NCBI GenBank assembly: GCA_046351295.1
Contig: JAXLYT010000035.1
Location: 13,452-77,451 of the forward strand
DNA length: 64,000 bases
Reading direction: 5' to 3'
Origin: Byssovorax sp.
GTDB taxonomy: Bacteria > Myxococcota_A > Polyangia > Polyangiales > Polyangiaceae
The translations under genes were made by a program, and so were the position numbers. Below are positions 55,150 to 63,733 of the stretch, piece after piece. Position 1 is the first letter of the stretch; each line of letters starts with the position of its first letter. The notes beneath the pieces were generated by a model. The model was given only the letters and a program-made list of their open reading frames with translations. It ran no database searches and was not told the DNA's origin.

Positions 55150-57456
55150 ATGACGAAGATCCCCGTCACGCTCACCGTCACCGTCAACGACACCACCCTG
55201 GACGTGCTGGAGATCTCCGGGAGCGAGGGCGTCTCGATGCTCTTCGAGATCGAGATCGTCGCGCGGAGCAAGGACATCCACCAGGACCTCGACGCCCTGG
55301 CCGGCGCGGGCGCGACGCTCGCCTTCGAGCACGGGACGCACACCCGATCGATCCACGGCGTCCTCGGCGGGCTCACCCAGGAGCAGACCACCGCCGAGAG
55401 CGCCGTGTACCGGCTCTGGCTCGTCCCCGAGGCGTGGCTCCTCACGCAGCGCGTCGACTATCGAATCTTCCAGTCGCCGAGCTCGCTCGGCGCGCTCTTC
55501 GCCGTCCTGCTCGGCGCGGTCCCGTATTCGATGGCGCTCTCGAAGACGATCGCCCCGCGCGATCTCTACGTGCAGTACGGCGAGTCGGACTGGGATTTCC
55601 TCTGCCGGCTCATGGAGGAGCACGGGCTCTACTACTACTTCGAGCACCGCGCCGAGGGCTGCACGCTCGTCATCACCGACTACGCCCAGAGCACCGACGT
55701 GTCGGTCGCGGCGCTCGATTTCCACGACGATCAAGGCGCGCTCACCGGCGCCGCCGAGGTGGTCACCTCGTTCCACTTCGGCAAGAGGATCCGCCCGGCG
55801 CTCGTCACCACCCGCGCCGTCTCCTTCGACAAGCCGAGCCAGCCCACGAACGAGCAGGCTGGCAAGGCGGACAGCTACTTCGAGGTCCACAGCTACCAGC
55901 CGGCGCAGAGCGCGGAGAGCCGCCTCGCCGCGCTGCGGATCCGCGCCGCCACGGGCAACGGCGCCGCGCACACCGTGCGCCTCGCGAGCGGCAGCAAGAT
56001 CACCCTGGGCAACCACCCGCGCAGCGATTTCGACGGCGAGTACTTCGTCACGCGCGTCGAGCACAAGGGGAACACGGCGAGCTTCGCCGCGGGCTACGCA
56101 TGCTCCTTCGAGTGCATCCCGGCGAGCACCACCTACCGCCCCGAGGCGAAGACGCTCCGCCCGACGATCACCGGGCCCCAGGCCGCCACGGTCGTCTCCT
56201 CGGGCGACGAGATCGACGTCGACGAATACGGCCGCGTGCTCGTCCGCATGCACTGGGACAGGCTCGGGACCGACGATGGGAGCGGATCGCTCACGTACAA
56301 CGCATGCCGCGTTCCGGTGGCGCAGGCCGCCTCGGGATCGGCGTACGGGTCGATGTTCATCCCGAGGAAGGGCAGCTACGTGCTCGTCGAGTTCCTCGAC
56401 GGCGATCCGGAGAAGCCGGTCATCACCGGCCGCGCGTTCAACACCCTGGCGCAGTACCCTTATTCGCTCCCTGCCAACAAGACGATCTCGAGCATCCGCA
56501 CCTCGATCACCCCGTACCAGAGCGCGGCGCATTTCCACGAGCTCACGTTCCAGGACAGCGCCGGGAGCGAGGAGATCTACCTCCGGGCCGAGCGGCAGCT
56601 CCGGGTCGAGGTCACCGACAGCGACGACGGTGAGGACGCCCTGCGCGAGGTGACCGTGAACGGCGACGACACCGAGCTCGTCACGGGCGATCAGGTGATC
56701 AACGTGGTCGGCAAGCGATCGCTTCTGGTCGGCGCGCTCGCCGACGACGAGCCCCTCTCGGTCGCGAACAACGTGACCGTGACCGGCGACGAGACGATCT
56801 CCGTGAGCGGGGACAGGACGGTGACGATCGGCACGGCGACCGCCAACAGCGGGTCGGGCAACCAGAGCAAGACGACCGTGTACGGCAACGAGAGCACGAC
56901 GATCCGGGGCGTCGAGACGCGCAGGGTGACCCTCACGCGGAGCATCGACGTGGGCAGCGGGACCACGCCGGTCGACGACGACAGCGCGGTCGTGATCTAC
57001 ACGCAGGACTCGTCGGTGCGCGGCAGCGAGAGGGCCATGGTGAGCGACGATCAGCGCCTCGTGGTCAACGGTAACCAGGGCGTGTCCATCGGCGGGAGCC
57101 AGACGATCGAGGTGAGCGGATCGCGCACCGAGACGATCGACATGGATGTCTCGCAGAACTTCGGGAGCCTGACCACGACGGTCATGACAGGGGACGTGAG
57201 CGTCACGAGCGCGAGCGGCGAGGTGCGGATCGAGTCTTACACCGACGCGACGAAGATCGGCGGCAACACCATCTACCTCTCGGCCGAGTCGAACATCGAG
57301 ATCCGCTCGGCCACGAGCATCACCTTCGTCGTGGGCTCGCTCACCGACAACGGCACCTGGTACCGGAAGATCACGCTCGACGCCGACGGGATCTACCTGT
57401 CGAACGGCGACGTGACCGAGAAGCTTGTCGGCTCCCAGGTGAAGATCAACTGCTGA
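55150..57456 (+). CDS. vgrG: type VI secretion system spike protein VgrG (gp27/gp5-like fusion)
   Basis: It has a gp27-like N-terminal half. A gp5-like beta-helix follows, with octapeptide-type repeats VTVTGDETISVSGDRTVTIG... The protein is 768 aa. Confidence 0.85.
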   Translation: MTKIPVTLTVTVNDTTLDVLEISGSEGVSMLFEIEIVARSKDIHQDLDALAGAGATLAFEHGTHTRSIHGVLGGLTQEQTTAESAVYRLWLVPEAWLLTQRVDYRIFQSPSSLGALFAVLLGAVPYSMALSKTIAPRDLYVQYGESDWDFLCRLMEEHGLYYYFEHRAEGCTLVITDYAQSTDVSVAALDFHDDQGALTGAAEVVTSFHFGKRIRPALVTTRAVSFDKPSQPTNEQAGKADSYFEVHSYQPAQSAESRLAALRIRAATGNGAAHTVRLASGSKITLGNHPRSDFDGEYFVTRVEHKGNTASFAAGYACSFECIPASTTYRPEAKTLRPTITGPQAATVVSSGDEIDVDEYGRVLVRMHWDRLGTDDGSGSLTYNACRVPVAQAASGSAYGSMFIPRKGSYVLVEFLDGDPEKPVITGRAFNTLAQYPYSLPANKTISSIRTSITPYQSAAHFHELTFQDSAGSEEIYLRAERQLRVEVTDSDDGEDALREVTVNGDDTELVTGDQVINVVGKRSLLVGALADDEPLSVANNVTVTGDETISVSGDRTVTIGTATANSGSGNQSKTTVYGNESTTIRGVETRRVTLTRSIDVGSGTTPVDDDSAVVIYTQDSSVRGSERAMVSDDQRLVVNGNQGVSIGGSQTIEVSGSRTETIDMDVSQNFGSLTTTVMTGDVSVTSASGEVRIESYTDATKIGGNTIYLSAESNIEIRSATSITFVVGSLTDNGTWYRKITLDADGIYLSNGDVTEKLVGSQVKINC

Positions 57457-57476
57457 GCGCGAGGACGAGCGACACC

Positions 57477-61709: not shown

Positions 61710-61741
61710 GGGGCCGGGAAGATCAAGAGCAAGCTCGCGGT

Positions 61742-63733
61742 GTGTCGCGAGACGCGGGTGGGAGTGACCTTCCAGGGCGGACGCGCGACCCTCCGAGCGT
61801 GGGAAAAGGCGAGCAGCACCAGACCCTCGGGCTGGATCCGAAACTGGCCGAGAGGCTCGCGCAGCCGCTCCCCTTCGCCGGCATCGCAGACGAGGGACAG
61901 AGCCTGAAGGCGCGCCTGCTCGAGCCGCCCGAGGGCGCTTCGCCCGCGCCGATCGCGCTCGACGCGATGCTGTTCCGCGAGGGCGCGTCGCTCAAGATCG
62001 CGGTGATCGTCAAGGCAGCCTTCTCCCTCGTCGATCCGGTGATGGTCCCGGCCGAGGCGCCCGAGCCCTTCCGGCCGCTCGACGTGCATTACCTGAACCG
62101 TCCGCTCGGCCACGTGATCGCGGCGAGCGATCGGGTGCCACGCAAGGACCTGGTCGACGTGACGCTCGTGGGCCCCGCCCGCGCGCCGAACGGAGAGGCC
62201 GTGCCCGAGATGCGGGCGCGCCTCGTCGTGCTCCAGGGTAGCCGCGCCATCGACAAGGCGGTGCAGGTGCTCGGCAATCGCGCGGACAAGGACGCGGCGC
62301 CCGCGCCCTTCGTGAGCATGCCCATCACGTGGGAGCGCGCGTACGGCGGCGCGACGCCGGTGAACCCGATCGGCTGCTCGGGCTACGACGACGATCAGCC
62401 GAACATCGTCGATCCCCAGAACCCGTTTCGCCCGGTGGGCTTCGGGCCGATCTCCGCCGCGTGGCCGCTCCGCAACAAGCGCCTCGGCGCGCTGACGCGC
62501 GCGTTCCTCGACGCGCCGATCGTCGATATCCCGGAGGGCTTCGACTGGGGTTACTTCCAGTCCGCGCCGACCGATCAGCAGCTCGCCGAGCTCGATCCCG
62601 AGGCGATCGTGGTGCTCGAAGGTTTCCACGAGGGCAAGCCGCGGCTCGAGATCTCGCTGCCCAACGCGCAGGCGAAGGGGGCGATCTACGGGCTCGATCC
62701 CGCGGCCCCCGACGCGCCCAGGGAGCTCGCGTTCCGCGCCGACACGCTCCACCTGGACACCGATCGCTGGCTCGCCACGATCACGTTCCGCGCGTCGATC
62801 GATCTCCGCGGCACGGAGGATCTCGGGCGGTTGCTCGTCGCCGTGGGGGTGTGCACGGGCGATCGCGCGCCGGCCATCCCCGCGGAGCGGCCCGAGCCGA
62901 CGCGGCTCTCGCTGCCGAACGTGCCGATCGCGACCCGGCCGGGCGCGCCGGCCAGCACCTCGACGGGGACGCTGGAGCTGCGAGGGGCCGAGGAGGCGCC
63001 GCCCATGACCTTGCCCTTCAGCAAGGGCGACGGCCCCGACTCCGGCCAGGCTCGCGACACGCTCCTCTTGCCGCCCGAGCCCGGCGTGCTGCCGCCGGTG
63101 TCGGCCCTCGGCGCGGGGCCGCCCCTCTCGCCCACGGTGCCCTTCCCGACCGCGGACATGTTCGAGATCCGCTTGCCTCCCGCGGCGCCCGAGGCGCCCG
63201 CGCGCAAGGCCTCGGACTTCTTCCACGACATCTCGAAGCTGCCCGCGCCGGGGAACATCGTGCCCCGCGCGAAGGACGAGGTGGCGGCGCCCGCCGAGGA
63301 CGCGCCCGCCGTCGACATCGAGGAGTACGCGCGCATCTCGGTCGAGCTCGCCGAGCCGGGGGCGCGCAAGGCCGCCGTGCTCGGCGCGCACGAGCTCGAT
63401 CCGATCTCATTTCGCAAGGTCGATCGGCACTACCGGCGCGCGATGGAGCGCGAGTCGAAGCGTGGCGCGCGGGCGCTGCGCGATCGGTTCGACGAGGCCT
63501 ACGTGCTGACCTGGGAGGCGAAGCATGTCGGGCGCTTCGACGTCGCCGCATACGCGAAGCTCTGCCACGCGCAGCAGCGAGGGTTGCTGGTCGGCGAGCT
63601 GGAGGAGCAGGGGCTCGACGCGGCGCTCGGGGCGAGGCTCCGCCGCGTGTGGAAGAAGCGCGTCGCTATGGATCCGAAGCTGCGCGCGCAGGTGGAAGAA
63701 GCCTTGAAGGCGGGCGGCGAGGGCGCCGGCTGA
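61742..63733 (+). CDS. DUF2169 family protein (paralogue 3) with Pro-rich linker and C-terminal helical extension
   Basis: The blocks WERAYGGATPVNPIG, PVGFGPISAAWPLR and FDWGYFQSAP are present. It has a GTG start. The protein is 663 aa. Confidence 0.65.
   Translation: MSRDAGGSDLPGRTRDPPSVGKGEQHQTLGLDPKLAERLAQPLPFAGIADEGQSLKARLLEPPEGASPAPIALDAMLFREGASLKIAVIVKAAFSLVDPVMVPAEAPEPFRPLDVHYLNRPLGHVIAASDRVPRKDLVDVTLVGPARAPNGEAVPEMRARLVVLQGSRAIDKAVQVLGNRADKDAAPAPFVSMPITWERAYGGATPVNPIGCSGYDDDQPNIVDPQNPFRPVGFGPISAAWPLRNKRLGALTRAFLDAPIVDIPEGFDWGYFQSAPTDQQLAELDPEAIVVLEGFHEGKPRLEISLPNAQAKGAIYGLDPAAPDAPRELAFRADTLHLDTDRWLATITFRASIDLRGTEDLGRLLVAVGVCTGDRAPAIPAERPEPTRLSLPNVPIATRPGAPASTSTGTLELRGAEEAPPMTLPFSKGDGPDSGQARDTLLLPPEPGVLPPVSALGAGPPLSPTVPFPTADMFEIRLPPAAPEAPARKASDFFHDISKLPAPGNIVPRAKDEVAAPAEDAPAVDIEEYARISVELAEPGARKAAVLGAHELDPISFRKVDRHYRRAMERESKRGARALRDRFDEAYVLTWEAKHVGRFDVAAYAKLCHAQQRGLLVGELEEQGLDAALGARLRRVWKKRVAMDPKLRAQVEEALKAGGEGAG

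Follow-up and report, generated by a model that had tools for sequence, protein, structure and literature searches.

What does a vgrG locus encode when it holds three DUF2169 genes but only a single candidate effector gene? The question is raised by six genes at positions 55150-63733 of a 64-kb stretch of DNA (the window) from a metagenome-assembled genome (MAG) of Byssovorax sp. (Polyangiaceae, Myxococcota). They encode, in order, VgrG (TssI), a 72-aa protein (s72), DUF2169-A, the effector candidate E (a putative tip and cargo protein), DUF2169-B on the reverse strand and DUF2169-C; E and s72 are identical to the hypothetical proteins U0359_22280 and U0359_22270 of this MAG. DUF2169 proteins have been described as chaperones dedicated to DUF4150/PIPY tip domains, usually at a 1:1 ratio, and without them the PIPY tip forms no secretion-competent complex with VgrG (PMC11883445); Tvp systems have been sorted into three classes (PMC13373197). 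An earlier reading of this DNA (the original prediction) took the three DUF2169 genes as a sign of effector-module turnover or decay. Our analysis instead favours, at a probability of roughly 0.6, an intact auxiliary module that loads the spike of a type VI secretion system (T6SS) and is a variant of the DUF2169/Tvp systems.

A packed operon with two further DUF2169 genes

As the G+C content of the window is about 70%, genes were called from third-position GC (GC3), which supports the called frame for every gene of the locus (0.85-0.96). The gene order proposed at the outset was confirmed, with changes only to the starts of DUF2169-B and DUF2169-C. VgrG (55150-57456, plus strand, 768 aa), whose start is fixed by alignment with its orthologues in M. 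rosea (Minicystis rosea, locus L001) and in loci L005, L006 and L007, is followed after 20 bp by s72 (57477-57695, plus strand, GC3 0.96) and, 13 bp further on, by DUF2169-A (57709-58989, plus strand, 426 aa). The start codon of E (58986-60587, plus strand, 533 aa), an ATG at 58986, overlaps the stop codon of DUF2169-A as ATGA. These four genes form one tightly packed operon.

DUF2169-B (60594-61688, minus strand, 364 aa) converges on E, with 6 bp between their stop codons, and alignment of orthologues places its start at ATG 61688 rather than TTG 61709. DUF2169-C (61799-63733, plus strand, 644 aa) begins at a GTG, 61799, that is likewise supported by orthologues, and the next gene lies 17 bp past its end. 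The 110-bp region between the divergent B and C genes (61689-61798), delimited from the sequence and the orthologue-supported starts, presumably carries the promoters of both; no sigma-70 consensus site was found in it.

The cassette recurs in other genomes and metagenomes

The cassette recurs in M. rosea, in Sorangium and on about 10 metagenomic contigs, and 12 loci were covered by a census with purpose-built hidden Markov model (HMM) profiles; a scan of a species-representative genome collection with close sequences returned M. rosea only. The order VgrG-s72-A-E-B, with B convergent, is found in M. rosea, L005 and L006. In M. rosea a gene for a small VgrG mimic is followed by VgrG, the 72-aa gene, a DUF2169 gene (426 aa), E (600 aa) and a convergent DUF2169 gene (365 aa), beyond which come two Ser/Thr kinase genes and then a long DUF2169 gene (619 aa). 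L005 consists of VgrG, the 72-aa gene, DUF2169, E and the convergent DUF2169, and L006 has the same gene set with the long DUF2169 gene and a VgrG-mimic gene upstream on the opposite strand. Other loci are arranged differently: L007, from a root metagenome, is rearranged to A, E, s72, convergent B, VgrG and VgrG mimic; L009 (Sorangium sp. So ce134) has C and, further on, s72-A-E; L017 has C-A-E and L018 has VgrG, mimic, A and E. In L019 and L020 the genes for VgrG, mimic, B, A, E and an s72-like protein are all co-directional, with B directly upstream of A.

A constant feature is the pairing of DUF2169-A, the paralogue that adjoins E and is linked to vgrG in the window, with its neighbour. An A-type gene stands directly upstream of the E-family gene in every HMM-classified locus, and a DUF2169 gene does so in all 13 loci that show the upstream gene, three of which hold distant members of the E family (E-values of 1e-25 to 1e-4). 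This pairing and the ATGA overlap bear out the general idea, contained in the original prediction, that a DUF2169 protein loads the adjacent protein on VgrG.

E joins a conserved N-terminal domain to a polymorphic C-terminus

Only 7 full-length homologues of E were found among 5.8 billion proteins, and a profile of its N-terminal domain (N-domain) collected 162 representative proteins at an E-value of 1e-3 or below. Nearly all of the 150 hits listed match from about residue 1 onwards, in proteins of about 80 to 1295 aa, and the named members of the family carry the label "hypothetical protein". Alignment of the homologues gives a conserved N-terminal part of about 160-185 residues. In the window protein a beta-rich N-domain (residues 1-160; 58986-59465) leads into a moderately hydrophobic, amphipathic helix (residues 161-202; 59466-59591), and the helix over residues 161-185 is the most conserved element of all, its D163 being invariant in 124 sequences. 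A very basic stretch follows, then a variable Lys/Ala/Asp-rich helical region with Lys-rich helical hairpins (approximately 59613-59970), and finally a C-terminus (approximately 60399-60584) of two or three (D)RFxW(V) repeats and an acidic tail, which is built likewise in the Sorangium homologue. Prolines, three PH-type motifs, H20, D72, H79, C137 and D163 are conserved family-wide. The near-invariant H20, H79 and C137 resemble, as a sequence pattern and as a resemblance only, the PAAR metal site (PMC3482391).

From the 7 homologues AlphaFold2 gave an unusable model of E, with a mean predicted local distance difference test score (pLDDT) of 42. An alignment of 124 sequences repaired the N-terminal half, and the block-mean pLDDT over residues 1-180 was mostly above 90. 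In the model a confident all-beta domain is succeeded by a long helix and by helical hairpins, and the C-terminal region is of low confidence. Three fold searches with this model were swamped by the helices and were uninformative on the beta domain. We also considered a three-fold internal repeat (YPHISF, VPHLSY, SPHLSC) and rejected it: when the thirds of the domain were compared by hhalign, nothing beyond the 6-residue motif aligned, and that with a probability of about 1%. The N-terminal position of the domain, the constant DUF2169 gene upstream, the linkage to VgrG and the presence of VgrG-C-terminus mimics in related loci together suggest that it acts as a tip domain.

The one contrary case is the E homologue P0006 from marine metagenomes (L002, 10001-11464; also L003 and L004). 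The N-domain of this protein is missing its first ~90 residues, and its gene has MTHFR and glutamate-synthase genes for neighbours, with neither VgrG nor DUF2169 encoded in the vicinity; we take it for an orphan or a truncated copy.

The C-termini of the family are polymorphic. Big_12 domains occur in 7 members, among them the E protein of L020, which is 1295 aa long, and the E protein of L007 shares only the N-domain with the window protein and is unrelated beyond it. Neither E as a whole nor its C-terminal part matched NCBIfam, and the C-terminal part gave no Pfam match and no enzyme domain either. As it shows no enzyme signature and no immunity gene is linked to it, this part is probably no classic self-toxic antibacterial enzyme, and it may be a membrane-active or structural cargo.

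These properties could also be read as those of a structural spike cap. E would then carry a non-toxic helical extension that serves in adhesion, in sensing or in filling the baseplate cavity, and the real cargo would be encoded elsewhere. This would agree with the lack of an enzyme domain and an immunity gene and with a model that comprises a coiled coil and a low-confidence C-terminal region, and Tvp complexes have been proposed to fill the baseplate cavity when effector domains are absent (PMC13373197). We nevertheless consider it unlikely: the C-termini vary greatly in both length and content, as those of delivered polymorphic cargo usually do, and a moderately hydrophobic helix next to a strongly basic stretch would suit membrane targeting.

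s72 stays constant while the C-terminus of E changes

s72 is exactly 72 aa long in the window, M. rosea, L005, L006 and L007, with 46-76% identity and a nearly invariant C-terminal motif, NFWKGAWRIYEAE. It has no match in Pfam or NCBIfam. A word-based search returned only 6 clusters, and a purpose-built HMM found counterparts in 8 further loci, 7 of them strong and one, in L019, weak (5.5e-07). The relative in L020 has 78 aa and ends NFWQGHWQVFEAD. The gene follows VgrG in the Polyangiaceae-type loci and in L016, stands upstream of A in L009 and lies directly after E in L007, L019 and L020.

This position directly after E in three loci is the usual one for an immunity gene, and in the Polyangiaceae loci it is B that directly follows E. 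An ordinary effector-immunity pair, with s72 or DUF2169-B as the immunity protein of E, would be formed on this account. Immunity proteins normally co-vary with the toxin domain. The L007 copies are, however, 47-53% (s72) and 52-55% (B) identical to their counterparts although the C-terminus of E is wholly different there, and s72 is also kept in L020, where E is far larger and contains Big_12. The partner in a T6SS effector-immunity pair would change along with the C-terminus of E, and neither s72 nor B, the sole conserved neighbours, does so. Furthermore, B belongs to DUF2169, a family with a demonstrated chaperone role (PMC11883445). Such a pair is accordingly improbable. The constancy of s72 against a changing C-terminus of E leads us to read it as an accessory factor, and comparison of the loci makes a toxin-specific immunity protein unlikely; of what had been raised earlier about the 72-aa open reading frame, its conservation with vgrG loci stood and the immunity role became improbable. 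No immunity-type gene was found elsewhere in the window, and nothing follows E but the stop codon of the convergent DUF2169-B, 6 bp off, as had been noted before.

VgrG is of the T6SS type, with no core genes in the window

VgrG matches Phage_GPD (1.6e-61), Phage_base_V and Gp5_trimer_C in Pfam. Its scores of 385.6 bits with TIGR03361 (cutoff 186.35) and 293 bits with TIGR01646 (cutoff 121.8) exceed the curated cutoffs for T6SS VgrG (TssI). The protein has a gp27/gp5-like hub, an OB domain and a beta-helix, and ends ...VKINC with no C-terminal effector extension.

Small proteins of about 140-180 aa are encoded beside vgrG in six related loci: L001 (5702-6157), L006 (792-1322, minus strand), L007 (5293-5811), L018 (940-1446), L019 (9302-9721) and L020 (1983-2522). 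Those inspected (L001, L007 and L020) end ...KLNC, like the termini of VgrG proteins (...INC/LNC). Three of the four tested (L007, L018 and L019) have a weak DUF2345 match in Pfam, that of L018 a weak DUF3540 match as well, and no DUF6484 match was seen. By their sequences these VgrG mimics look like TvpC-type proteins.

None of the ~50 genes of the window carries a TssA-M-type domain in a Pfam scan, which agrees with the original prediction; the kinds of gene present include metabolic genes, proteases and surface proteins. The cassette might on these grounds serve another contractile-injection apparatus, or be an inactive orphan without firing machinery, and some loci, such as L009, have A-E-C with no VgrG within 8 kb. 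We give this little credence. The VgrG of the window passes the T6SS-specific TIGR03361 by a wide margin, and DUF2169 is reported to co-occur strictly with T6SS VgrG-tip complexes (PMC11883445). T6SSs are reported to be encoded in genomes of Polyangiales, including Polyangiaceae and Minicystis (PMC10196010, PMC11821767), and with 61 vgrG paralogues in M. rosea (PMC5801462), orphan vgrG loci are normal in this group.

The three DUF2169 paralogues are separate orthologous groups

All three proteins score above the PF09937 gathering score of 25 bits: DUF2169-A with 143.4 bits (1.3e-41), DUF2169-B with 157.4 bits (7e-46) and DUF2169-C with 168.7 bits (2.4e-49, the match being confined to the N-terminal half). 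By curated cutoffs, the original prediction was right about DUF2169 and VgrG. Against the solved DUF2169 structure 8VTH, DUF2169-B has a weak sequence match (E-value 1.3e-4) and DUF2169-C a match of 1.2e-5. In DUF2169-C the DUF2169 domain is followed by a variable Pro/Ala-rich linker and a conserved helical C-terminal domain of about 135 aa (approximately 63320-63730); its C-terminal 297 aa gave no Pfam match, NCBIfam was likewise empty for this domain, and it belongs to no known family.

A phylogeny of the paralogues had been proposed as a check, and a neighbour-joining tree with homologues from several loci resolves A, B and C as three separate orthologous clades. Identity across loci is 48-67% within the A group, 59-72% within the B group and 43-52% within the C group, compared with only 22-30% between groups. 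B, the most conserved of the three, keeps its 59-72% across four loci; the C-type orthologues come from M. rosea, L006, Sorangium (L009) and L017, and 43-52% is the range among the four full-length ones. All three are intact, full-length and of conserved length across genomes, with coding-type GC3. Linked to the operon, DUF2169-B and DUF2169-C are each conserved as an orthologous group of its own, and the relative places of the paralogues are kept in M. rosea and several metagenomic contigs.

Turnover or decay is unsupported, since the paralogues are intact, conserved in length and each more similar to its counterparts in other genomes than to the other two, and there is no room in gaps of 6, 110 and 17 bp for the remnants of lost genes for which a search between the paralogues had been proposed. 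That B and C are left-over adaptors of lost effector modules is very improbable, and comparison of orthologues has already largely refuted it: three DUF2169 genes do stand against one client gene, the DUF2169:DUF4150 ratio is 1:1 in >80% of surveyed genomes (PMC11883445) and B is inverted relative to the operon, but full-length orthologues of B and C (44-72% identity) are linked to the cassette in M. rosea, L005, L006, L007, L009, L017, L019 and L020, B is better conserved than the other paralogues, GC3 is 0.89-0.93 and L019 and L020 have B co-directional in the operon directly before A.

Two features of the gene arrangement may bear on regulation. In the window and in L001, L005, L006 and L007, B is convergent with the gene before it, only 3-88 bp separating the two, and in L019 and L020 it is co-directional; read-through antisense transcription could couple its expression inversely to that of the operon. 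In M. rosea, two Ser/Thr protein kinase genes (12984-15997 of L001) lie between DUF2169-B and DUF2169-C, which could hint at post-translational control of the module.

A proposed loading mechanism

That the genes form a conserved system is well supported by comparison of their sequences, on the grounds of gene content, conservation, orthology and adjacency, and it is from these that we infer all binding and loading steps of the module. The VgrG trimer would serve as spike to a T6SS whose genes lie elsewhere in the genome, and the N-domain of E would be seated on its blunt C-terminal end, as PAAR and PIPY (DUF4150) domains are. DUF2169-A, as the equivalent of TvpA, would keep this domain ready for loading, in the way known for TvpA/DUF2169 and PIPY domains. 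In the complex Tvp classes a second, unrelated protein, the pentapeptide-repeat TvpB or the thiolase-like TvpD, closes a belt around the tip, and the VgrG mimic TvpC carries the pre-complex (PMC13373197). Here DUF2169-B would take the belt role, joined in Polyangiaceae by DUF2169-C, both as further subunits of the loading complex, and this belt of paralogues would have its counterpart in TvpB and TvpD, the belt proteins outside the DUF2169 family that class II and class III systems use. B, C and s72 may protect further surfaces of the tip domain, or else its hydrophobic helix; s72 in particular would cover another surface, possibly the invariant helix behind the tip domain. In the related loci that encode one, the ~150-180-aa mimic of the VgrG C-terminus would probably be a TvpC-like pre-assembly platform. 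The C-terminal part of E, a Lys-rich coiled coil with aromatic/acidic RFxW repeats behind it, would be the delivered cargo.

A similar stoichiometry has been modelled in a related context. Clusters of VgrG, OB-fold, DUF2169 and PAAR-fold genes near COMMD-like genes have been noted in Myxococcota and likened to vgrG1b (PMC13392464), and four adjacent genes of a Polyangium cluster yielded an AlphaFold hetero-hexamer of 3+1+1+1, that is, one trimer and three single-copy proteins (PMC13392464). This arrangement would fit the idea of a paralogue belt, with the Polyangium fumosum proteins TKD03568-71 as possible orthologues of those considered here.

Several results weigh against a spike-loading module of this kind. 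The original prediction named DUF4150 effectors as the proteins that DUF2169 adaptors load, and DUF4150 was not detectable in E: the protein and its 7 homologues have no Pfam match up to an E-value of 10, none of 124 E-family members matches PF13665 (DUF4150) at an E-value of 0.01 or below, and hhalign of the N-domain with a 120-sequence PF13665 profile gave 0.5% probability. By sequence, these three results speak against E being a DUF4150/PIPY protein. PAAR (PF05488) gave no Pfam match in the E family either, and sequence searches of the PDB with the N-domain were empty. The window protein does contain the tetrapeptide PIPY, the motif that gives DUF4150 domains their name (PMC11883445), at residues 29-32 within PPLPPIPYYPH, but the motif is not kept family-wide. 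Conservation is limited to the prolines and the PH after them, and position 32, occupied in 58 of the 124 sequences, is variable (F/M/Y). A gene for a VgrG mimic, or TvpC-like protein, was sought in the window and none was found. Lastly, L009 has neither B nor VgrG within 8 kb, L018 has no s72 and L005 has no C, so that B, C and s72 may be dispensable or encoded elsewhere; several of the census loci are on short contigs, and the absence of B, C, s72 or VgrG from a single locus is weak evidence.

Comparison with known Tvp systems

The locus can be compared with class I Tvp systems (synteny type B), exemplified by Agrobacterium vgrG2-atu3641-tde2 (PMC11883445, PMC13373197). Both have vgrG, a gene for a single-domain DUF2169 protein and a tip-effector gene, with a presumed N-terminal tip domain and variable C-terminal cargo, and both lie outside the core cluster as auxiliary loci. 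Unlike class I, the tip is non-DUF4150 by Pfam and hhalign, two extra conserved DUF2169 paralogues and the 72-aa protein are present, and there is no immunity gene, whereas Tde2 has Tdi2.

Class II (synteny type A) is represented by P. aeruginosa vgrG1b, with the DUF6484 TvpC PA0096, the DUF2169 protein PA0097, the thiolase-like TvpD PA0098 and Tse7. A multi-protein loading complex would be common to both, the DUF2169 protein and a second protein forming the belt round the tip in class II, and the small mimics of the VgrG C-terminus in L001, L006, L007 and L018-L020 are comparable to TvpC. In contrast to class II, the belt partner here would be a DUF2169 paralogue instead of a thiolase-like protein, and the window has no TvpC-like gene; neither a DUF6484 TvpC nor a thiolase-like TvpD is encoded in it. 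Class III (synteny type C) comprises the Serratia system of TvpAB, TvpB and the DUF3540 protein TvpC, and Burkholderia TagAB. Like our locus with its DUF2169-C, it has a DUF2169 protein extended at the C-terminus, and, as would be so here, a spike is served by two or more accessory proteins. The extension of DUF2169-C, however, consists of a Pro/Ala-rich linker and a helical domain, not pentapeptide repeats, and no pentapeptide-repeat or DUF3540 domain was found in A, B, C or the neighbouring genes. The locus fits none of the three Tvp classes.

The Myxococcota clusters mentioned above (PMC13392464) come from the same bacterial group (Sorangium and Polyangium) and show the same folds, with Ser/Thr kinases nearby as in M. 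rosea. They differ in that they were described there only as context for COMMD-like genes, and no COMMD-like domain was detected by Pfam in the window; the paralogue groups, the 72-aa protein and the tip-domain family were left unresolved. We found no published description of the paralogue groups, the client domain family or s72, the clusters having been noted in passing (PMC13392464).

A more specific and more tentative proposal, which we hold to be possible rather than probable, is that the locus represents a fourth architectural class of Tvp. Such a class would have a previously unrecognised VgrG-capping domain (non-PAAR and non-DUF4150 by sequence, with a conserved His, His and Cys) and a belt of two or three DUF2169 paralogues with a ~72-aa cofactor. 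It would deliver a polymorphic, largely non-enzymatic cargo without a linked immunity protein, perhaps aimed at prey or eukaryotic cells rather than kin.

The cassette suggests that the clientele of DUF2169 is broader than DUF4150/PIPY tips and extends to an unannotated N-terminal domain family of ~160 representative clusters. DUF2169 paralogues may fill roles that unrelated belt proteins hold in other Tvp classes, and the conserved ~72-aa protein would be a new component of the set. An N-domain gene with a DUF2169 gene upstream could serve as a new marker for T6SS cargo in giant myxobacterial genomes with dozens of orphan vgrG islands, and the family may help to explain how spikes diversified in predatory myxobacteria. 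Pending experimental evidence of the interactions and of secretion, the practical impact is modest.

Other genes in the window

We did not adopt the term mobile island for the locus: mobility genes are absent and a tRNA border call was not confirmed. ARAGORN called a tRNA-Ala with the unusual anticodon AGC at 49802-49876 (plus strand), where no Rfam tRNA reached the gathering threshold; the call is probably false and unusable as an island border. A 163-aa gene upstream of VgrG (53564-54055) has a lipoprotein-type N-terminus and was set aside as unrelated to the cassette.

Further from the locus, a 956-aa protein (30566-33436, plus strand) contains a Major Vault Protein shoulder domain (PF11978, 1.3e-16) with Vault_3 and Vault_4 repeats, which marks it as a bacterial homologue of the vault shell protein of eukaryotes; the 233-aa gene preceding it has no family match in Pfam. 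The stretch from 1296 to 10104 holds a gene for a sterol reductase of the ERG4/ERG24 family (8821-10104, 4.2e-84), with two cytochrome P450 genes and one for an esterase in its vicinity. The region could be a sterol-type modification cluster, which would fit the steroid production reported in Minicystis-like myxobacteria. Genes for coenzyme F420 biosynthesis are split between 11362-14328 (plus strand) and 36497-39174 (minus strand), with CofE-, CofD- and CofC-like genes at one site and two CofG/H-like radical SAM genes at the other. A four-gene system of the 2-hydroxyacyl-CoA dehydratase/benzoyl-CoA reductase type, with two HGD-D subunits and two BcrAD/BadFG ATPases, occupies 17681-22405 (plus strand), with two enoyl-CoA hydratase genes upstream. 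At 40053-41641 (minus strand), a gene for a collagen triple-helix repeat protein (322 aa) stands directly upstream of one for a Laminin_G_3 (concanavalin-like) protein, with an astacin protease and a large FG-GAP repeat protein encoded nearby.

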